Shown here in pieces: positions 8,163 through 55,990 of a DNA stretch of 64,000 bases. Source of the DNA: Dehalococcoidia bacterium (GTDB lineage: Bacteria > Chloroflexota > Dehalococcoidia > CAUJGQ01); assembly GCA_035310145.1 (NCBI GenBank), contig DATGEL010000120.1, forward strand, positions 21,479 to 85,478, in the 5' to 3' direction. How positions within the stretch are numbered: position 1 is the stretch's first letter; each line of letters starts with the position of its first letter. A program made the position numbers and the translations under genes. The notes below the pieces were generated by a model, which was not told the origin of the DNA, searched no databases, and saw only the letters and a list, made by a program, of their open reading frames with translations.

Positions 8163-8348
8163 ACTGTCTTGCTCCACGCGCCCGGCCGGCGGGCGCCGCC
8201 AACAACTGCTTGCAACTGCATTATCCCGTCCGCCGATCGCGAGAGGCAATTCAGACCGGTTTTTCATAGCTTCCCTCCTTCCCCCTATCCATTTCATGGA
8301 GAGGGGGCCAGGGGGCGAGGCCAGGCGGGATGCTACACTGGCGCCGCG

Positions 8349-41489: not shown

Positions 41490-42242
41490 TCATTTGCCGG
41501 CGAAGGCGATCACAACGCTGACGAGATTGAACAGGCAGTGGGCGCCGATGTTTGCCCAGAGCGTGCCGGCGCGGTAGTAGGTCCAGGCGAGGATCACGCC
41601 GATCACGGTGAAGGGAATGATCAGCGTGCCCTGCTGGTGCGCCAGCGCAAACAGCAGGCCGCTGAGCGAGGCTGCGCCGCTGAAGCCGAGGCGCCGGCGC
41701 AGCCCGTTGAAGATGAAGCCGCGGAAGAACGTCTCCTCCACGATCGGCGCCGCGATCACGGTCAGGAGCGTGGCCAGGGGGATCGTCGCGGCGTGCTCAA
41801 AGATGCCTTGCGGCACATTGTCCTGCGGATAGAGCCAGTGCAGGCCCGGAATCTGCGTGAGGCCGATGTAGCCGAACAGCGCCACATAGGCCAGCACCCA
41901 CGCCGCGAACGTCCATCCGGCCCAGCGGCCCGGCGGCCGCCAGCGGTAGCCCAGCAGGCCGAGCCCGCCGGGGAAGCGGCCGACGCTGAAGCTGAGGGCC
42001 ACGCCGAACAGCGCGGCTTCGAACAGCAGCGTCAGCAGCAGGCTGAGCACGAGGCCGTTGACGGAGTCGGTCGCCGTGCCCGTGCCGCTGACGATGATCG
42101 CAAGGGCTAGGCCCAGCAGCAGGAAGGCGGCAATCACCGCGCCCACCCCCGCCAGGCACTGGCGCCAGTCCCACGGCGGCAGCGGCAACTCGCCGTCGCG
42201 CGGCCGCGGCGCGGGCGTTGGGTCGGATGAATCCTCGCTCAC
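41490..42242 (-). CDS. CPBP (CAAX protease/Abi) family intramembrane metalloprotease
   Basis: GTG start 8 nt after trpB stop; EETFFRG..FALAH..TL.. CPBP motifs; sits between trpB and trpA. Confidence 0.65.
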   Translation of the reverse strand: MSEDSSDPTPAPRPRDGELPLPPWDWRQCLAGVGAVIAAFLLLGLALAIIVSGTGTATDSVNGLVLSLLLTLLFEAALFGVALSFSVGRFPGGLGLLGYRWRPPGRWAGWTFAAWVLAYVALFGYIGLTQIPGLHWLYPQDNVPQGIFEHAATIPLATLLTVIAAPIVEETFFRGFIFNGLRRRLGFSGAASLSGLLFALAHQQGTLIIPFTVIGVILAWTYYRAGTLWANIGAHCLFNLVSVVIAFAGK

Positions 42243-42250
42243 GCCGTGCC

Positions 42251-43459
42251 TCACAGCGGCAGACCGAGGGCGGTGGAGACCGTGTCCATGTCCTTGTCGC
42301 CGCGGCCGGAAAGGTTCACCAGCACGATCTGCTCGCGGGCAAGCGCGGGCGCCAGCTTCGCGGCGTAGGCCAGCGCGTGCGACGATTCGAGCGCCGGAAT
42401 GATGCCCTCCGTGCGGCACAGCATCTGGAAGCCTGCCAGCGCCTCGGCGTCGGTGATCGAAACATACTCCGCCCGGCCCGTGTCCTTATAAAAGCTGTGC
42501 TCCGGGCCGACGCCGGGATAGTCCAGGCCGGCAGAGATGCTGTGTGTCTCCGTGATCTGACCGTTCGCGTCCTGCAAGAGATACGAGCGGGCGCCGTGCA
42601 GCACGCCCGGCCGGCCGGCGACCAGGGTGGCCGCATGCTTGCCCGTCTCGATGCCGCTGCCCGCGGCCTCGACGCCGACGAAGCGCACCGTGCGGTCCTC
42701 GTAGAAGGGATGGAAGAGGCCGATCGCGTTGCTGCCGCCGCCCACGCAGGCCACCGCGTAGTCGGGCAGCCGCCCTGCGGCCGCCAGGATCTGCTCGCGT
42801 GCCTCGCGGCCGATCACCGACTGCAGGTCACGCACCATCACGGGATACGGGTGCGGGCCGGCGGCGGTGCCGAGCAGGTAATACGTGGTGGCGACGTTGG
42901 TCACCCAGTCGCGCATCGCCTCGTTGATTGCGTCCTTCAGTGTGCGGCTGCCCGTCGTCACCGGGCGCACCTCGGCGCCAAGCAGTTTCATGCGCGCCAC
43001 GTTGGGCGCCTGGCGGTGAATGTCCTGCTCGCCCATGTAGACCACGCAGTCGAGGCCGAGCATGGCACAGACGGTGGCCGTGGCGACACCGTGCTGACCG
43101 GCGCCCGTCTCGGCGATCACGCGCTGCTTGCCCATGCGCTTCGCCAACAAGCCCTGCCCCAGCGCGTTGTTGATCTTGTGGGCGCCGGTGTGCGCCAGGT
43201 CCTCACGCTTCAAAAAGATCCGCGCCCCACCGAGGCGGTGAGTAAACGACTCGGCGAAGTAGAGCGGCGTCGGCCGGCCGACGTAGGTACGCAGCAGGTG
43301 CGCAAGCTCCTGGCGGAACGTCTCATCCCGCGAGAACTCGCCGTATGCCCGCTCCAGCTCAATCACGGCCGACATCAGAGTCTCGGGCACGAAGCGCCCA
43401 CCAAACTCGCCAAAGCGCCCGCGCTCGTCGGGCCGTGCGCTGTCAGGGGTTTGAACCAA
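42251..43459 (-). CDS. trpB: tryptophan synthase beta chain
   Basis: TTG start 6 nt after AAGGAG; [16 protein letters not shown].., PLP Lys in ..HTGAHKINN.. Confidence 0.9.
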
Positions 43460-46912: not shown

Positions 46913-47875
46913 TCAGTTCACGCGCGCGTCTTCCAGCTCGGCCACGATCAGCGCCGCCGTCTGTTCGGGCGTCAGCCCCGTGCTGTCAAGCTTCATGCCG
47001 CGCAGCTCGCCGTTGAGCCGCATGATGGCGTCGAGCTCGGCGCTGCGCTCGCCCATGCGCTGGTCCTCGGGCCGTGCCTGATCGCGCCGCAGCAATTCGT
47101 CCAGCCGCGGCGCCAGCGTCACAAAATAGGTCTCGATCGGGCCGAGCGCCTCCAGCAGTGTGTCCAGCTCCTCGGGCGACTCCAAGACGCCTTCGATCAC
47201 GCAGTCGACGCCCTCGGCCGTAAGGTTTCGGGCCAGCGCCGCCGCGTTGCGCAGGCCAAGGAGAATCTGGCGGCGGGCGGCCCCCGGATCGGAGCCATCC
47301 CAGTCCGGCGGCACGCCGCCGCGCACGAAGATGTCCCAGCCGAGGTAGTCGAGCGCGACCAACGCGCTGCGCTCGCTCTGTTCCGCGACCAGCCGTCCGA
47401 CCGTGCTCTTGCCGGCGCCCGCCGCGCCCGTGATGACAATCACCTTGCCCGCTCGCCCTTCCGGCGGCTCGTCGGCACGCGGCCCCGACGCGATGCCCAG
47501 TGCAGCATGCAGCGCCTCGCTCAGGTCAGCCGGCAGCGCAAGCTCTGTTATGGATGGCAGAGGCACCCACACCGGCACGCCGCTGCCGGGCGATCGGTGG
47601 GGCGCACCCTCCCACCGCGTCACAAGCTGAAGATTGTTCAGCCGCACGCCGCCGTCGGCAGCGCGCTCGTAGAACGTGTCGATGAAGCTCTGCTCCGACA
47701 CGGTGATGCCCAGGGTTTCGGCGAGGAACTCGGCCAGCGCCTCTTCGATCTCGATCGCCTCGCGCAGCGGGACACGGGGCAGCGCCAGACCGACGCCCGC
47801 TTCAGCGCCCTCCTTCTGCAGGAAGAGCAGCGAGGCGCCGTCGCTGATCGCCGCCGTGATCTCGATCTCCGGCAT
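46913..47875 (-). CDS. two-domain protein: N-terminal domain of unknown function plus C-terminal P-loop NTPase/kinase-like domain, embedded in trp operon
   Basis: 320 aa; Walker [18 protein letters not shown], Walker-B-like VDCVIEGV; start overlaps trpE stop (TGATG), ends 20 nt before trpG. Confidence 0.6.
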
Positions 47876-49350: not shown

Positions 49351-49621
49351 GGCAGGACTGCTTTCTGAACAGGTCGGCCCTCACCCTCCCCCGAGGCTTG
49401 CTCCTGCCTCTCCCAATCCTGGGAGAGGGAGGGGAGCTTGGGATCGGGTGGAAGGGAGGAAGACGCCGGGTGTGGCGGCCACTTGTGGGCGAACGGCGGG
49501 CGCCCCTGCAAATCTCCGAAGTAGCCTCGCCTTCAGCCCCGATCGCCCCGTGTCTCGATCTCCCCTTCCCCTGGGATCGGGGCCAGAGGGATGAACCTGG
49601 GGATGGGGGCCACAGGTGACC

Positions 49622-50986
49622 TCAAACCACCGGCACGCCCTTCATCGATTCGGCCACCAGCTCCGCGGGATAGGCGTAGTCCTCCAGCTCGCCGGCGAAG
49701 TAGCGGTCGTAGGCCGACATGTCGAAGTGGCCGTGGCCGCTGAGGTTAAAGAGGATCGCCTTCTCCTCGCCGGTCTCTTTGCAGCGCAGCGCCTCGTCGA
49801 TCGCGGCGCGGATCGCGTGGGAGGTTTCCGGCGCGGCAATGATGCCCTGCGTGCGCGCGAACTGCACCGCCGCGGCGAAGGCGGCCGTCTGGTGCACGGC
49901 GCGGCCCTCGATCGCGCCGTCGTGGTAAAGCTGGCTGATCAACGGCGCCATCGCGTGGTAGCGCAGGCCGCCCGCGTGGATTCCCGGCGGCATGAACGAG
50001 CTGCCCAGCGTGTACATCTTCAGCAGCGGCGTGGTCTTCGCCGTGTCGCCGAAATCGTAGGCGTAGTGGCCGCGGGTCAGGCTGGGGCACGATTCCGGCT
50101 CGACCGCGATGAAGCGCGTCTCCTTCTTGCCCGCCAGCTTGTCGCGCATGAAGGGGAAGGCGAGGCCGGCGTAGTTCGAGCCGCCGCCCACGCAGCCGAT
50201 CACGATGTCCGGATAGTCACCGGCCAGCGCCAGTTGCTTCAGCGCCTCTTCGCCGATCACGGTCTGATGCAGCAGCACGTGGTTGAGCACGCTGCCCAGC
50301 GAGTACTTGGTGTCCTCGCGCGTGGCCGCGTCCTCGACCGCCTCGCTGATCGCGATGCCGAGGCTGCCGGGCGAGTCCGGATCGGCTTCAAGGATCGCGT
50401 TGCCGGCGTGGGTGTCGTGGCTGGGGCTGGCGACCACGTCCGCGCCCCAGACCTGCATCATCGAGCGACGGTACGGCTTCTGGTGATACGAGACCTTGAC
50501 CATGTAGACCTTGAGCTCCAGGCCGAACATGTTGCAGGCCATGGCGAGGGCACTGCCCCACTGGCCGGCGCCGGTCTCCGTGGTCAGGCGCGGGACGCCT
50601 GCCTGCTTGTTGTACCAGGCCTGCGCCACCGCGGTGTTCGACTTGTGCGAGCCGGCCGGGCTCACGCCCTCGTACTTGAAGTAGATGCGCGCCGGCGTGC
50701 CCAGCGCCTGCTCCAGCCGCGTGGCGCGCACCAGCGGCGAGGGGCGCCACAGCTTGTAGACCTCGCGGATGTCGTCAGGGATATCGATGTAGCGTTCGCC
50801 GCTGACCTCCTGCTTGATCAGCTCCATCGGGAAGAGCGGCGCCAGCGCCTCCGGCCCGACCGGCTCGTGCGTGCCGGGATGCAGCGGCGGCGCGGGCGGG
50901 TTGGGCAGGTCGGGGATGATGTTGTACCAGCGCTGCGGGATCTCGCTCTCCGGCAACAGGATCTTCGTCTCCGCCATCGTTTGCAC
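49622..50986 (-). CDS. trpB2: TrpB2-type tryptophan synthase beta-like protein
   Basis: ~454 aa; [25 protein letters not shown].. TrpB2 N-terminus; PLP Lys in ..GSHKSNTAV..; GTG 50986 after GGAGG (alternative ATG 50977). Confidence 0.85.
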
Positions 50987-51060
50987 CGGCCGCCTCCTTC
51001 GCCTGCGCTCGCAGGCCCGATCCAGCCGCACGGGCCAACCGCCCGGCCCGTCGCGGCGCA

Positions 51061-51364
51061 TCAAAAAACCCCTCCGCCCCGGCGCTGTATTGCGCCTCGC
51101 AGGGGCGAGGGGATCTCGCGGTGCCACCCTGATTACCGCGTGGAACACGCGGCATCTCTTTGCGGGTACGTCCGCCCGGCAGCGGAGTTACCCTGGGCTC
51201 TGATAACGGCGCCCACCCCGGCGACGCCTACTCCCGCGCGAAGGCGGCTGCCCTCCGCGCCGTTTCGGGCCGCGGCTCACGGGTCCATTCGCGTGGCCTC
51301 ACCCCCCGGCCCCCTCTCCAGGTCTTTCCATCGCGCGGAGCGCGATCTCAGATGGAGAGGGGGG
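51061..51364 (-). promoter_or_regulatory. T-box riboswitch leader (tryptophan; UGG specifier, UGGC discriminator reader) controlling trpB2 and probably the downstream trp/aro operon
   Basis: Minus-strand T-box sequence AAUCAGGGUGGCACCGCGAG (51134-51115, 17/18 to consensus). Antiterminator: A1 CAGGG/CCCUG, 7-nt bulge UGGCACC, A2 GCGAG/CUCGC, loop AUCCC. Competing terminator CCCCUCGCCCC..GGGGCGGAGGGG plus UUUUUU (51068-51063). Stem I 10-bp helix with unpaired ..GAUGGAAAGACC (UGG then A). Confidence 0.7.
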
Positions 51365-51506
51365 ATTGTGCAGGGGTTGTGGGGCCGCACCCGCCTTACG
51401 GCGGGACCGCTGCGCTGGCGCCGGCTCACACCTTCCCCGGCTCTCTGGGCCGCGCTGGCGGCGTACTCTTCCCGATCGTTGCCGTGCCTATGCAGTTGTG
51501 CCGTTG

Positions 51507-51535
51507 ACCGTAGCAGCGGCTTGCGGAAATGTCAA
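51507..51535 (-). promoter_or_regulatory. sigma70-like promoter for the T-box/trpB2 transcript (TTGACA-17-TACGGT)
   Basis: Perfect -35 hexamer with 17-nt spacer to TAcggT, ~100 nt upstream of Stem I. Confidence 0.4.
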
Positions 51536-51571: not shown

Positions 51572-51943
51572 CTACAGGGCGGCCCCGGGCGCGAGCTGCG
51601 CCACCATATTGAGCAGTTCGCTCAGCGTGAACGGCTTTCTGAGCACGCCGTCGGCATCGAGCTGCCGGGCCTTCTGCCGGGCGCTGTTGTCGGCCGTAAG
51701 CACGGCCAGCGCGATCGCGGGCCGCAACCCACGGCGCCGCACTTCCTCGGCGAAGGCGTAGCCGTCCATCCGCGGCATGTTGAGGTCGAGCAAGATCAGT
51801 GCCGGTTGCTCGACCTCCAGCACGGCCAGGGCGTCGAGACCGTCGCTGGCCAGCGCGACGGAGTAGCCCTCATCCTCCAGAATCGCCTGCACCATCGCCT
51901 GCAGGCCCACATCGTCGTCCACCACGAGAATGGTTCCGCTCAT
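51572..51943 (-). CDS. single-domain response regulator (CheY-like receiver)
   Basis: ILVVDDD..D..LILLDLNMP..K receiver residues; start overlaps the upstream kinase stop. Confidence 0.8.
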   Translation of the reverse strand: MSGTILVVDDDVGLQAMVQAILEDEGYSVALASDGLDALAVLEVEQPALILLDLNMPRMDGYAFAEEVRRRGLRPAIALAVLTADNSARQKARQLDADGVLRKPFTLSELLNMVAQLAPGAAL

Positions 51944-54900
51944 GCGCCCGCGTCCCCTGCGGGCGGCTCGCAGGGCAGGCGTAGCGTGGCCGTCGTTCCG
52001 TGGCCCTCGCTGCTTTCGAATTCGAGCGTCCCGCCGTGCTCATCGACGATCTGCTTGGCCGCGGCCAGGCCCACGCCGACCCCGCGGATGCGGCCCACCA
52101 CGTTGCTGCCGCGATGAAAGCGCTCGAACAGCCGGGGCAAATCGGCGGCGGGGATACCGACGCCATGATCGGCAATGGTGATCCGCGCCCAGCGGCTGCC
52201 GGCGCGCGTCTCGGCCGCGAGCGTCACCTGCACATCGCCGCCGGCGGGGCTGTACTTGACGGCGTTGCCGAGCAGGTTGCCAATCACCCGTTCCAGCCGG
52301 CCCGCATCCCAGACGCCCTCGAGCGACGGCTGCTGGAGGTCGAGCAGGATGCGATGGTGCGGCGCCGCCTGCTGCTGTTCGGCCACGAGTTGGCAAAGGA
52401 GCGCGGCGAGGTCGTGCGGCTTCCGCTCCAGCTCGAGCGAGCGCCCACTCTCCAGACGCGCCAGGTCGAGCACGCCGTTGAGCATCGAGGCCATGCGGCC
52501 GGCGGCGCTGTCGGCCAGCTCCAGGCGCTCCCCGAGCCGCTCGGCTTCCGGCGTGGCCATCCGCGCGGCCTGGCGCCTGGTGAGCTGCACGAGGCCGCGC
52601 ACGGTCGTCAGCGGCGTACGCAGATCGTGCGAAACCGCGGCGAGAAACTCGCCTCGCACGCGCATTGCCTCTTGCGTCTCGGCCAGGGCGCGGTCGCGGG
52701 CCTCGGCGGTCTCCCGCAGTGCCGCGTTGAGGGCGATGTGCGCCTTCACCTGCTCCCGCAGCGCCGCCGCTGCCCGCGCCCGCTCCACCGCGGCCCACGT
52801 GCGCTCCGCCGTCTCCTCGATCAGCGAAATCTCGCCTGGCGACCAGTCCCGCACCGTCGACTGGTGCACGCTGAGGAACGCGACGAGTTGATCGTCCTTC
52901 AGCAGCGGGACACTGATGTTTGCCCGGATGTTGACGGCCTCGAACGCCGCCCGCTCCGCCGGCGTCAGGTGCGGTAGCCTGGCGTAATCACCAAAGATGA
53001 GCGTGCGGCCGGCATGGAGCGTCTCTGCGACGATGCGGCCGAAGTCTCTGAGCCGGGAGCGGCCGATAACCGAAGGCACGCCGACGCGGACGTAATTCGC
53101 CTCCACAACGGCGGTTTGGCCGTTATCGCCGATCTCGGCGTAGAGCACCCGGCTGGCGCCGAGGTGCTCGCCCAGCAGCCGCGTCGCCGCCGTCTGAATC
53201 TGGTCTGGATGGGCGAGCGGCCGCAGCGCGTCGGCGAGCCTGACGCGAAACGCGTCTCGGGAAGCGGCCGTGGCCACCGCTTCCTCCGCCTGCTTGCGAG
53301 CGGTGACATCCTGGGTAACGCCGATCAGCCGCAGCGGCGCGCCGTCGGCGCCCCGGACAACCTGGCCGGTCGACTCCAGCCAGAGCACAGCGTCGGTCCG
53401 CCGATTGTGAAAACGACTCTCGATGTGGAGGTTGCCGTCGCCCGCGATCGCCTCCGCGATCGCTTGTTGCTGAGCGGAGGCGTCCTCAGGCTCCGAAAAG
53501 GTGCGGATCGCCTCGCTCATGGGCATCGGAAAGCAGTCCGCGGGATAGCCGAGCGTCTCCGCGAAGCTGGGGGCGACCGCTGTCACGCCGGTGCGCAGGT
53601 CCACTTCCCACGCAGAGATCCTGGCCGCCTGCGTCGCCCGGCGCAGACGCTCCTCCGACTCGCGCAGTTTGGCAGCGGCTTCATCCCGCACGCGCGCCAG
53701 TTCCAGGTGGGCGCCAACACGGGCGATCAGCTCCCGTGCCGAGAAGGGCTTCACCAGGTAGTCGTCGGCGCCTGCCTCGAGTCCTTCAACGCGCGCCTCC
53801 TCGCCGGCGCGTGCCGAGAGCAGCAGAACGGGTACGTGGGCCGTGCCCGGCTCCGCACGCAGCGCCTGCAGCAGCCCAAAGCCATCGAGCTTCGGCATCA
53901 TTACGTCGCTGATCACCAGGTCGGGGCGGCGCTCCCGCGCCGCGGCCAGCGCCGCCGCGCCGTCGGCCACGGCCTCGACCGTCCAGCGCTGCCGCAGCAG
54001 GCGGGCCAGGTACTCGCGCATGTCGGCGTTGTCGTCGGCAAGCAGAATGCGGGCATGACGGCCGTCGAATGGGAACGTAGCGCCGGCGCCGGCCGGCGTG
54101 TCCATCGCACTCGGATCGAACGGGTCCGGACCTGAGGCAGGCGCATCCGGCAGCCGGCGCAGCGCCTCCTCCACGTACGCGCTGGCGCCGATGGCGGTGG
54201 AGGCCAGCGTGCGGGCCGCGCAGATCTGGTCGTCGGGCAGGTGCGCCGTGCCGGCGGGAACCGTCACCGTGAACGTGGCGCCCTGACCGGGCGCACTCTC
54301 AACCGCGATCGTGCCGCCGTGTAGCTGTACCAACTCCCGCGCGAGCACCAGCCCGATGCCCGTGCCCTCCTGCGTGCGTGCCTCGCTGCCGCGCACGCGG
54401 TAGAAGCGCTCGAAGAGGTGGGGCGTGGCCTCCGCGGGAACGCCGACGCCGGTATCGCGCACGGTGAGGACAGCGCGATCGCCGGCCCGGTGCACGCCAA
54501 CCGCGATCTCGCCCCTAAGCGTGAACTTGAACGCATTCGAGATCAGATTGAGGACGATCTTCTCCCACAGCTCGCGATCGACGTAGACCGCCTGAGGCAA
54601 TGGCGGGCAATCCACGATCAGGCGCAGGCCGGCCCGCTCGATCGCGGAGCGGAAGACACTGGCGAGGTCGGCGGTGAGTGCCGCCAGGTCGGTGGGTTCG
54701 TAGCTCGCCTCCATCCGCCCGGCCTCGATGCGCGATAAGTCGAGCAGCATGTTCACCAGCTTGAGCAGCCGCTGCCCGTTGCGCTGCGCCACGTCCAGCT
54801 CCCGCCGCACATCCGCGGGAAGCTCGCCGTGCGCGTTGTGCAGCACGTCTGCGAGCGGGCCGAGGAGCAGGGTGAGCGGTGGTGCGGAACTCGTGACTGA

Positions 54901-55990
54901 CGTTGCTGAAGAAGGCCGTCTTGGCGCGGTCCAGCTCGGCCAGGCTCTCGGCCCGCCGCCGCTCCGCGTCGTACGCCTCGGCGTTGGCGATATTGGCGGC
55001 GAGCTGCGAGGCGACCATCGCCAGGAAACCGCGATAGCCTTCGTCAAAGGCGCGGTAAGGGTTCAACCCGGCGACCAGGAGGGCTGCCTGCCCCCGGCCC
55101 CCCGCAGGCACCACCGGCAGGACCGCTGCCTGCGCGGGCGGCCGGTCCCACGGTCCGGCCGGCAGGGAAGCGACCCGCTCCGTGAGGTCGGAGACGATCT
55201 GGATCTGGTTGCGCTCGAGCACCCGGGCCAGCGGCCACAGCGAACCGTCATTCAGGGCAACGAGCAGCGGCGCAGCGGGATGGCCCGGGCCGATGCCCGC
55301 CGCGCCGGCCAGCTCCAGCCGCTGTCCTTCCGGGTCGACGACGTAGAGCATGGCGAACGGCAGATCGCGCGCGTCGGTGCTCAGGCACGCCGCACTGAGA
55401 CGGCACGCCTCTTGCCGCGTACGCGCGTCGGCCGTGGTGGCTCCAAGCTGGCGCAGCACGGCCATCTGCCGTTCGCTGATGATGCGCGGCGTCTCCTCGG
55501 TGTTGGCGCAGATGATACCGCCGCTGCCACCGCGGTCGTTCGGCACCGGGCTGTAGGAGAAGGTTTAGTACGTCTCTTCCGGATAGCCATTGCGCTGCAT
55601 GATCAGCAGCAGGGCCTCGTCGTAGGTGCCCTCGTTGCGCTGCAGCGCCGATGCCGCGCGCGGTCCCACCTGATCCCAGATCTCGTGCCAGACCTGGGAC
55701 GCCGGCTGCCCCAATGCCAGCGGATGTTTGCCCTGCAGGATGGTCGTATACGCGTCGTTGTAGAGATTGATGAGGTCGTCGCCCCACCAGACGAACATCG
55801 GCTGACGCGAGGTCAGCATGATGCGCACGCAGGTCTTGAGGCTCTGCGGCCAGTGCTCGACCGGTCCCAGCGGCGTCGCGGCCCAGTCGCGGCCGCGCAT
55901 CAGCGCCGCCAGTTCGCCGTCGCCGGGGAAGGTCTCGCTCAGCCCGGGCGCATCAGACCCGCCCGCCGTCGTTTCCGCGCGACGACGCAT
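51940..55990 (-). pseudogene. large PAS-GAF-HisKA/HATPase-REC-PAS-GAF-HisKA/HATPase hybrid sensor kinase, disrupted by in-frame TAA (55565-55567) and a 1-nt frameshift inside the first H-box (~54865)
   Basis: ORFs 55565-55990 (PAS) and 54515-55546 (GAF..SNVSHEFRTT) share a frame split by TAA; the H-box continues in another frame (..PLTLLLGPLADVL) as ORF 51940-55047. Deleting one nt from CGCACCACCGCTC restores SHEFRTPLTLL. Confidence 0.5.

Follow-up and report, generated by a model that had tools for sequence, protein, structure and literature searches.

The minus strand between about 51500 and 51061 of the DNA analysed here, a 64-kb stretch from a Dehalococcoidia bacterium (the window), very probably encodes a class-I, transcription-attenuating T-box that responds to tRNA-Trp and controls a trp/aro operon led by trpB2. 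The system itself, a Trp T-box in front of trp genes in Chloroflexota, is known; it is structurally new in having a Stem I with an insertion of 113 nt. The analysis covered sequence anatomy, homology, covariation, thermodynamics and gene content, and tRNA binding, antitermination, promoter use and tolerance of the insertion are predicted on this basis. The features of the leader, which measures about 435 nt up to the terminator, are listed in Table 1.

Table 1. Features of the T-box leader and of the operon downstream, in window positions
Feature	Positions	Strand	Description
Putative sigma-70 promoter	51535-51507	minus	TTGACA 51535-51530, 17-nt spacer, TACGGT 51512-51507; predicted function
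Stem I	51483-51274	minus	From 5' K-turn GGCAACGAU to 3' K-turn UGAGCC, insertion included; alignments A1 and A3
Specifier loop, 5' side	51470-51464	minus	AAGAGUA (S-turn AGUA); AGUA invariant in 14 leaders and equal to the RF00230 consensus AGUA
AG bay, distal helix and distal loop	51446-51425	minus	tRNA-elbow platform; AG bay AGAGAG 51446-51441, distal helix GCCGG/CCGGC, distal loop GGAAGGUGUGAG 51436-51425
113-nt insertion	51406-51294	minus	Upper Stem I helix, 3' strand; flanked by GCGG 51410-51407 and CG 51293-51292
Hairpin P-a	51405-51390	minus	CCCGCC-GUAA-GGCGGG; in all four insertion-bearing leaders
Arm P-b	51386-51295	minus	Long hairpin; core 51364-51295, TM repeat CCCCCCTCTCCA...TGGAGAGGGGGCCGGGGGGTGAGGCC with nested 32-nt apical hairpin
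GAUGGA	51332-51327	minus	Apical part of P-b; not the specifier
Specifier loop, 3' side	51290-51284	minus	GAA-UGG-A; Trp codon UGG 51287-51285, then a purine
Stem II with S-turn motifs	51273-51221	minus	GCGGCCC-GAAA...AGUA-GGCGUCGC; pairing in the window by eye
Stem IIA/B region	51220-51163	minus	CGG...CCG, F-box CGCCGUUA 51211-51204, clade-typical extra helix; putative pseudoknot
Stem III hairpin	51153-51136	minus	GCCGCGUG-UUC-CACGCGG(U); RF00230 local hit; -15.2 kcal/mol, z -4.8
T-box sequence and antiterminator	51134-51100	minus	T-box sequence 51134-51115, antiterminator 51131-51100; UGGCACC bulge; identical in L081
Intrinsic terminator	51112-51063	minus	Hairpin 51112-51069 and U6 51068-51063; -31.6 kcal/mol, z -3.7
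trpB2	50986-49622	minus	TrpB-like PLP enzyme; NCBIfam NF009057 758 bits, TIGR01415 658 bits
Rest of operon	49350-38974	minus	trpE, ORF320 (P-loop kinase-like), trpG, trpD, trpC, trpF, trpB, Rce1-like membrane protein, trpA, aroH chorismate mutase, DAHP synthase; NCBIfam and Pfam

Upon a search of the whole window with Rfam at the gathering thresholds, three tRNAs were the only hits and no T-box was called. On the leader itself the T-box model RF00230 matched in two pieces, with 33 and 13.3 bits, as compared with a gathering score of 93 bits, which is a curated cut-off and not a biological feature. The 33-bit local match (E 1.7e-5) spans Stem III and the antiterminator; the model also matches the 5' and the distal parts of Stem I, and the two halves of the match are not joined. 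The initial annotation had proposed RF00230 as its check and a score below threshold as its refutation. Formally this outcome was obtained, and it is explained by the insertion, which splits the match, together with GC-rich divergence: insertion-free Chloroflexota relatives are aligned over model positions 1-219 and yet score only 52-88 bits. In all, eight related leaders upstream of trpB2 are aligned over positions 1-219 (52-120 bits), their specifier position being GAA-UGG-R, and the Firmicutes relatives L075 (120 bits) and L071 (108 bits) exceed the gathering score.

The genes downstream all read on the minus strand, their junctions being short or overlapping, and co-transcription from trpB2 to the DAHP synthase gene is to be expected. 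Genes of the cognate amino acid, a hallmark of T-box targets, are thereby represented by trpB2, E, G, D, C, F, B and A. Translation of trpB2 more likely starts at GTG 50986 than at ATG 50977; the GTG sits 6 nt past the GGAGG of GAAGGAGG (51000-50993), and the JGI gene call in the closely related locus L081, the TrpB2 of which is 96% identical, begins at the equivalent GTG. An exact look-up of the window TrpB2 found no match on record. At the other end of the leader, the hexamers and the 17-nt spacer of the promoter described in the initial annotation are present, but the consensus scanner made no call there and the -10 hexamer is weak, fitting the consensus at 3/6 positions. Both hexamers are identical and in the same position in L081, the homology of which starts just upstream of the -35 hexamer, and L049 and L004 carry TTGACA-17-TATACT at the matching position.

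The proposal of a Trp-specific, terminator-type T-box at the head of a trpB2-led trp/aro operon was borne out by the RF00230 local match, the relatives, the folds and the gene families. The T-box sequence AAUCAGGGUGGCACCGCGAG was found where the initial annotation had placed it, inside the RF00230 match. The antiterminator that it had drawn is the MFE fold of 51136-51098, with 5 bp CAGGG/CCCUG, the 7-nt UGGCACC bulge, 5 bp GCGAG/CUCGC and a 5-nt loop; this fold, with the 7-nt UGGNACC bulge typical of T-boxes, has an energy of -12.8 kcal/mol and makes up 89% of the ensemble. The competing terminator likewise holds: its hairpin consists of 11 bp with a 1-nt bulge and a 5-bp apical helix, its 5' strand shares bases with the 3' strands of both antiterminator helices A2 and A1, the two folds being mutually exclusive, and its U6 is the sole run of at least six T on either strand of the window, which has a GC content of 68.8%. 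A simple scanner missed this terminator, the top of the hairpin being branched and its loop above the limit of the tool. The variable base C of UGGCACC, which had been matched to a G discriminator, is compatible with TBDB (bioRxiv 10.1101/2020.06.17.157016), where G is given for tRNA-Trp. A tRNA-Trp gene was found neither in the 64-kb window nor in the loci of the relatives, and complementarity of anticodon and discriminator with the tRNA-Trp of the host is assumed.

T-boxes of high-GC bacteria other than Firmicutes are often translational (PMC7583486), and an element sequestering the Shine-Dalgarno sequence, as in Actinobacteria, was weighed as an alternative. It is highly improbable here, since U6 comes right after the alternative helix and ends 62 nt upstream of the Shine-Dalgarno sequence, and the latter lies outside both alternative helices. 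In addition, Stem I of the window is long and has a distal platform, which translational T-boxes mostly do not have (PMC7583486).

Between the attenuator and Stem I, the leader follows the T-box order. GUAG of Stem II is invariant in alignment A1, RF00230 aligns Stem II in the relatives, and the window has GAAA...AGUAGG. The F-box segment CGUUA is also invariant in A1. In the Stem IIA/B region the extra helix GGGUA/UACCC encloses the hairpin UCCGC-UGCCGG-GCGGA, and in L081 this helix is changed in a compensatory manner to GGGCA/UGCUC. Along the entire leader, the core motifs of the window and L081 are identical and the differences are located in loops or are compensatory (terminator apex, where G-C is replaced by A-U, the IIA/B helix and P-a).

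The description of the T-box as well-formed holds for the antiterminator/terminator half and not for Stem I, which is interrupted by the insertion. The comparison set for Stem I consisted of 14 leaders, namely the window, three other insertion-bearing leaders (L081, L082 and L084) and 10 insertion-free ones, of which A1 includes six and A3 all 10. Relative to the insertion-free relatives, first 6 and then 10 in number, the insertion forms one clean gap. A model of the Stem I of insertion-free relatives, R1, was supplied with the canonical structure by hand, because the RNAalifold consensus of the insertion-free Stem I alignment missed the distal helices. R1 matched 51489-51398 with 55.6 bits (E 3.7e-12), the canonical part ending with GCGG at 51407; on the window it did not bridge the insertion, and the specifier positions appeared as deleted in the alignment. 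In-silico deletion combined with nhmmer was therefore used.

Exact deletion of 51406-51294 leaves a Stem I of 105 nt whose helices are those of the relatives, and its MFE is the canonical fold. The Stem I of the relatives measures 105-109 nt, except for L003 with 122 nt, which has an insertion of its own on the 5' strand. Against the insertion-free profile the deleted version scored 60.8 bits from end to end, as compared with a split match of 46.8 + 5.2 bits when the insertion was kept; with the same profile, the training members scored 58-76 bits and shifted deletions 40-58 bits. In the intact window the second nhmmer match aligns profile positions 86-104 to 51291-51273. With the insertion kept, the canonical Stem I fold lies 0.7 kcal/mol above the MFE, and the MFE of the Stem I segment already has the upper helix, the distal hairpin, P-a and P-b. 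The MFE of the full leader lacks the canonical fold and was set aside as evidence.

Covariation also supports this Stem I. Altogether 97.3% of the cells of the pairing columns are paired, as compared with 33-48% with slid partners; 10/20 pairs are changed on both sides, and the observed values were reached in 0/500 shuffles. The specifier loop is closed by CGGG (51474-51471) and CCCG (51283-51280) next to the K-turn, in the arrangement GAUCGGG-AAGAGUA...GAA-UGG-A-CCCG-UGAG, and this lower stem, closing across the insertion, covaries at 3/4 pairs. AAUGG is invariant in 14/14 leaders, and RF00230 puts the specifier at the GAA-UGG site in the eight relatives. On the distal side, AGAGAGCCGG and GGUG..A of the platform are invariant or nearly so in the 14 leaders and are matched by both RF00230 and R1. 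The K-turn at the base of Stem I, the specifier loop, the AG bay and the distal platform, all expected of a T-box, are hence present, and the true specifier is GAA-UGG-A and not GAUGGA. Pairing of CGGG with the CCCG that opens P-a, which would form a decoy Stem I with no specifier and was hinted at by the R1 alignment, is unlikely because the 6-bp G/C-rich P-a hairpin must break.

The initial annotation had instead taken a 10-bp helix within 51364-51310 as Stem I and GAUGGA as the specifier, that is, a compact canonical T-box. This hairpin exists and is very stable, and GAUGGA does hold UGG followed by a purine; it lies, however, inside the insertion. The apical part with GAUGGA is missing from 13/13 related leaders (L081, in spite of its near-identical TrpB2, L082, L084 and the 10 insertion-free ones), the tip of the hairpin has 3 nt with neither AG bay, distal loop, K-turn nor AGUA/GAA S-turn, its stem belongs to a dispersed repeat that recurs at 8283-8327, and the canonical Stem I motifs are all located elsewhere, flanking it. 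The compact anatomy can practically be dismissed.

Folded alone, the insertion has an energy of -73.4 kcal/mol (z -5.2). L081 (about 76 nt), L082 (about 52 nt) and L084 (about 35 nt) have insertions at this site too, and two other leaders have a 1-nt bulge there (GCGG-A-CG in L087 and GCGC-G-CG in L088). P-a shows compensatory changes, being CCCGUU/AAUGGG in L081, CCUGUC/GGCAGG in L082 and CCUGCC/GGCAGG in L084; it is 100% paired and 3/6 pairs are changed on both sides, these values representing few events in four sequences only. A metagenome scan with the junction sequence for more members of the clade returned only L084 and a duplicate of L081, and L083, called as a response-regulator::TrpB2 fusion, had no leader. 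By blastn against plasmids the insertion gave no match.

The arm P-b has another origin. A segment of 31 nt is 90% identical to 8297-8327 of the window, within the repeat site 8283-8327; a strict 26-nt pattern occurs in 2 copies in the window as compared with 0.00 expected, and a diverged third copy is located at 49429-49375. None of the three copies falls within an ORF judged to be a gene, the ORFs flanking 8283-8327 having been judged without protein-family comparison. A loose pattern of the hairpin alone was not significant (6 strand hits, 0-6 in shuffles), and the evidence for the repeat is restricted to the strict 26-nt pattern and the combination of hairpin and tail. In L081 the same repeat is found in the arm, without the apical extension. 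Judged by its sequence, the core of P-b is one copy of a repeat already described, the G/C-rich intrastrand triplex motif (TM). The blocks CCCTCTCC, loop, GGAGAGGG, short linker and GGGGTGAGG that define TM are present, in several copies and in non-coding DNA. With TM_ECO (Holder 2015, PMC4666352) the core shares CCCTCTCC, a loop and GGAGAGGG, followed by CCGG-GGGTGAGG, and it matches the type B sequences, given for E. coli as CCCTCTCCCTGTGGGAGAGGGCCGGGGTGAGGGC in Table 1 of PMC4666352. Several copies per genome, location in non-coding DNA and indels nearby between close relatives are also shared with TM (PMC4666352). Unlike TM, P-b is part of a structured regulatory RNA, the leader, with which it is transcribed, and it has a nested 32-nt hairpin in its loop.

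In the proposed mechanism, the CCA anticodon of uncharged tRNA-Trp would pair with the UGG codon in the specifier loop, and its elbow would stack on the platform formed by the AG bay and the distal loop. The free NCCA end would then pair with UGGC in the 7-nt bulge and stabilize the antiterminator. Charged tRNA would be unable to do so, the far more stable terminator with U6 would form, and transcription would stop. Read-through from the sigma-70-type promoter would proceed into trpB2-trpE...trpA-aroH-DAHP synthase. Stem I acts as a phase-sensitive ruler (PMC4919913). The side domain is predicted to branch from a bulge 2 bp above the specifier loop, so that the count of stacked pairs between codon and platform, the ruler, would be unchanged. 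The linear distance between specifier and platform is 135 nt in the window as compared with 20-23 nt in the relatives; the distance in three dimensions is predicted to be kept. At this position the 113-nt branch of the three-way junction would have to be sterically compatible with the anticodon stem of the tRNA, a demand that counts against the mechanism.

A different reading of the insertion is that of a crippled or relic T-box, in which an unstable repeat in the Stem I ruler has abolished tRNA binding and left a constitutive or leaky terminator, the operon being expressed from elsewhere or regulated otherwise. The length and phase of Stem I are critical, and with a disrupted hinge tRNA binding drops at least 12-fold (PMC4919913); for TM repeats a link to local instability, and not to function, is described (PMC4666352); RF00230 fails on the leader; and several trpB2 genes at 84-86% TrpB2 identity (L086, L090 and L091) have no T-box upstream. 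Against this, all conserved T-box motifs are intact and identical in L081, and the stem differences between the window and L081 are compensatory and therefore indicate continued selection on structure. Moreover, at one and the same site an insertion is kept in four lineages and its hairpin covaries, the length of the stacked helix is unaltered by the insertion, and a constitutive terminator of this stability, followed by U6, would presumably be strongly deleterious in front of the trp genes of the window. Loss of function is thus improbable, and a working Trp T-box remains the preferred reading.

That the branch is a functional module, defining a T-box subclass with a three-way-junction Stem I in one Chloroflexota clade, is rather doubtful. 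If so, P-a and possibly the variable arm may make an additional contact with tRNA-Trp or with Stem II/IIA-B, the branch may recruit another factor, or it may serve co-transcriptional timing, the specifier loop being delayed by about 110 nt. The arm may evolve by repeated capture and turnover of the triplex-motif repeat.

The T-box itself is routine, and its interest lies in Stem I. The leader escapes the Rfam gathering threshold, and hence also resources based on RF00230 such as TBDB, and a naive search for UGG picks the wrong codon; for this clade, missed leaders and wrongly assigned specifiers are therefore to be expected. The presence of 35-113 nt at one bulge site in four lineages, with the core motifs kept, points to a permissive site for engineering or tagging of T-boxes. 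The branch is also a tangible example of the 'insertions of unknown function' listed by the field as an open question, and a variable arm derived from an instability-linked triplex repeat indicates that dispersed repeats can enter and reshape the periphery of a regulatory RNA.

The arrangement is not new, since T-boxes upstream of trpE and of a 'trpB-like' gene in Dehalococcoides (Chloroflexi) were already catalogued by Wels et al. 2008 (PMC2494555). The Dehalococcoides Trp T-boxes resemble that of the window in phylum, specificity, target genes and terminator/antiterminator logic, and the insertion-free relatives L001-L004, L038, L049 and L087-L089 are of this type. The window and its three insertion-bearing relatives differ from this type in the Stem I branch of 35-113 nt, and the window leader is not recognized as one RF00230 unit. 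Firmicutes Trp T-boxes in front of trpB2, those of Fervidicola ferrireducens (L075) and a Tepidanaerobacteraceae MAG (L071), share with the window the K-turn, AG bay, distal loop, F-box, UGGCACC bulge and terminator, and their specifier is GAAUGGG; they differ in having no Stem I insertion, in extra sequence between Stem IIA/B and Stem III and in low GC. T-boxes with Stem Sa are similar to the window in that a lineage-specific helix, conserved in the clade, is appended to an otherwise canonical T-box. Stem Sa, however, has 42 nt, belongs to the antiterminator/terminator domain and has been shown to affect tRNA selectivity, whereas the insertion of the window is located in the ruler region of Stem I, reaches up to 113 nt, varies strongly in size and consists in part of a dispersed repeat.

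The T-box sequence claimed by the initial annotation was identified within a local match to the Rfam T-box model RF00230 covering Stem III and the antiterminator (33 bits, E 1.7e-5), and the claimed antiterminator (5 bp, UGGCACC bulge, 5 bp, 5-nt loop) was the minimum free energy (MFE) fold of its segment at -12.8 kcal/mol. The competing terminator hairpin was borne out by folding (-31.6 kcal/mol, z -3.7); it overlaps the antiterminator and is directly followed by U6, the sole T-run of at least 6, both strands counted, in the 68.8% GC window. The RF00230 check proposed there, however, did not yield a full match: the score stayed below the gathering score of 93 bits, with one additional weak fragment of 13 bits (in Stem I, the 5' strand plus the distal loop) and about 230 nt unmatched between the two. 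As a whole, the T-box observation is real in part and its interpretation holds in part, the Stem I with a GAUGG-A specifier lying within the unmatched stretch, away from the specifier string of relatives. Among TrpB2-anchored loci from GTDB genomes, a T-box core or complete T-box match was seen in nine leaders, and eight of these were matched by RF00230 over the full length (52-120 bits). At the specifier position, all eight read GAA-UGG-R and then CCC(G)GGAGCC, and the string of this region is also present in the window (GAAUGGACCCGUGAGCC). In MAFFT alignments of the window with 6 and then 13 relatives, AAUGG was invariant in 14/14 leaders. GAUGGA was rejected as the specifier, being part of an extra 32-nt hairpin nested in a repeat loop and found in the window alone.

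Compared with the relatives, the window carries a single clean, gap-free insertion of 113 nt between the upper Stem I helix (3' strand) and the specifier loop. Along the sequence, distal loop and specifier are 135 nt apart in the window versus 20-23 nt in 11 relatives. In the 14-sequence alignment, 97.3% of cells were paired, as against 33-48% with slid partners, and 10 of the 20 Stem I pairs were changed on both sides, a level reached in none of 500 shuffles. The lower stem CGGG/CCCG covaries at three of four pairs, and its closure in the window has to span the insertion. Upon exact removal of the insertion, a Stem I of 105 nt was obtained (relatives, 105-109 nt; L003, a Chloroflexota leader with its own 5'-strand insertion, 122 nt), and its unconstrained MFE was the textbook structure, including a 6-bp CGCCGC/GCGGCG helix. 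This shortened version matched positions 6-104 of 105 in a sequence profile of insertion-free relatives with 60.8 bits (training members, 58-76 bits), while the match to the intact window was split into 46.8 and 5.2 bits and control deletions displaced by 10 or 20 nt gave 40-58 bits. With the insertion in place, the canonical fold combined with a self-contained side domain (-109.9 kcal/mol) lay only 0.7 kcal/mol above the MFE (-110.6). A covariance model made exclusively from the 10 insertion-free Stem I sequences gave 55.6 bits (E 3.7e-12) for the window and was canonical through GCGG at 51407, but skipped the specifier positions instead of bridging the insert, likewise in three relatives. 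The start of the insertion, UCC(C/U)G in all insertion-bearing leaders, mimics the lower-stem 3' strand and is paired by this model with CGGG, so that Stem I closes as a specifier-less "decoy"; this may be nothing more than a by-product of the stem sequence of P-a, the first hairpin of the insertion.

Closer relatives were gathered by protein search and contig look-ups, and the insertion-bearing leaders were four only, the window, L081, L082, and L084. The insertion is at the same site in L081 (about 76 nt; TrpB2 96% identical), L082 (about 52 nt; 86%), and L084 (about 35 nt), and at precisely this position a single nucleotide is bulged in the insertion-free L087 and L088 (GCGG-A-CG and GCGC-G-CG). 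All four insertions open with P-a, a covarying 6-bp hairpin (CCCGCC/GGCGGG, CCCGUU/AAUGGG, CCUGUC/GGCAGG, CCUGCC/GGCAGG) that is 100% paired with three of six pairs changed on both sides. Beyond P-a the insertion is variable; the window and L081 have a long hairpin, the core of which (CCCCCCTCTCCA...TGGAGAGGGGGCCGGGGGGTGAGGCC) is 90% identical across 31 nt to window 8297-8327, and a diverged copy of the repeat is present in the trpB2-trpE spacer. The insertion is clade-specific, one part conserved and another unstable, and by sequence the hairpin core is the "intrastrand triplex motif", a G/C-rich repeat described by Holder et al. 2015. More copies of this motif, all non-coding, were detected (Table). 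The spacer copy is reversed in L081 relative to the window, suggesting local inversion or independent insertion. The separate insertion of about 17 nt in L003 (CCCGCCAGGGGCGGGGG) indicates that in Chloroflexota more than one site of Stem I can accept insertions.

The window and L081 share identical promoter hexamers, K-turn, specifier loop, AG bay, F-box, T-box sequence, and antiterminator. The changes between them are in loops or are compensatory, the latter at the apex of the terminator (G-C to A-U), in the IIA/B helix (U-A to C-G), and in P-a. In the structural literature, Stem I is portrayed as a ruler of about 60 Å that is phase-sensitive and has a species-specific hinge carrying bulged nucleotides (PMC4919913); a branch growing out of a bulge keeps the stacked-pair count as before, as seen in the deletion test. 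Given these L081 comparisons and the intact pair count of the ruler, a working Trp T-box with putative promoter and terminator is most likely; its main rival, a relic that has lost function, is rather improbable. No tRNA-Trp gene was found in the window or the related loci obtained.

Features of the leader, the operon, and related loci
Feature	Position	Strand	Remark
Operon 5' region	51535-50977	minus	long trp/aro operon
RF00230 fragment, 13 bits	51481-51395	minus
Lower-stem CGGG	51474-51471	minus
Insertion	51406-51294	minus	113 nt
Insertion start	51402-51406	minus
Second profile piece	51291-51273	minus	5.2 bits
Specifier region	51290-51274	minus	GAAUGGACCCGUGAGCC
RF00230 match, 33 bits	51161-51101	minus
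T-box sequence	51134-51115	minus	AAUCAGGGUGGCACCGCGAG
Terminator hairpin	51112-51069	minus
trpB2 start region	50974-51000	minus	GTG 50986, ATG 50977
Receiver-domain gene	51572-51943	minus	directly upstream of T-box promoter, with next
Hybrid histidine kinase	51940-55047	minus
320-aa ORF	46913-47875	minus	trpE stop overlaps start (ATGA at 47875)
Rce1-like (CAAX protease family) gene	41490-42419	minus	flanked by trpB and trpA
Triplex-motif copy	8283-8327	plus
Triplex-motif copy	49375-49429	minus
Triplex-motif copy	L081 2061-2086
L003 insertion	L003 2680-2700		Stem I 5' strand, just ahead of AG bay; Trp T-box
L083 fusion call	L083 412-2544		710 aa
L084 leader	L084 3320-3725	minus	T-box, then trpE with nothing between
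Extra module	L075 2835-2900		Firmicutes
Extra module	L071 2715-2790		Firmicutes

The leader is followed by trpB2 (NF009057, 758 bits), trpE, a 320-aa P-loop kinase-like ORF, trpG, trpD, trpC, trpF, trpB, the Rce1-like membrane protein gene, trpA, AroH chorismate mutase, and DAHP synthase, all on the minus strand. The trpB2 start may be GTG (6 nt past GGAGG), equivalent to the start of the JGI gene call in L081, as an alternative to ATG (15 nt past GGAGG). The 320-aa ORF, kept at the same position in L081, is P-loop kinase-like in its C-terminal half (Pfam CPT, 32 bits); its N-terminal ~140 aa gave no family match and the whole ORF no NCBIfam match. In L083, Response_reg and Trans_reg_C domains are joined to a TrpB2 85% identical to that of the window, which is either a true fusion of regulator and enzyme or a gene call that ran through. 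Gene order behind the Trp T-box differs among the relatives; in L087-L089, the T-box is followed by trpB2, then by a class-I aaRS gene (tRNA-synt_1b) that is probably trpS, and then by trpE. The trpB2 genes of L086, L090, and L091 (84-86% identical) are without a T-box. In two Firmicutes leaders upstream of trpB2, Stem IIA/B and Stem III are separated by an additional GGUGGCA...hairpin-U-run module. It resembles a degenerate T-box sequence and terminator preceding the genuine pair, in a partially tandem layout.

Within the limited reach of our literature search, no published description was found of a Stem I ruler-segment branch of up to 113 nt or of such a branch derived from a triplex-motif repeat. 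Because the T-box database TBDB rests on RF00230, this clade is likely missed or mis-annotated there. Lineage-specific T-box insertions are acknowledged as "curious insertions in every domain" (PMC7583486), and stem Sa is another one (PMC9177973). The regulatory arrangement is not new, since in Dehalococcoides T-boxes had already been reported in front of trpE and of a trpB-like gene (Wels et al. 2008; PMC2494555); the system is of a known type, the Trp T-box, and its structural variant is new.
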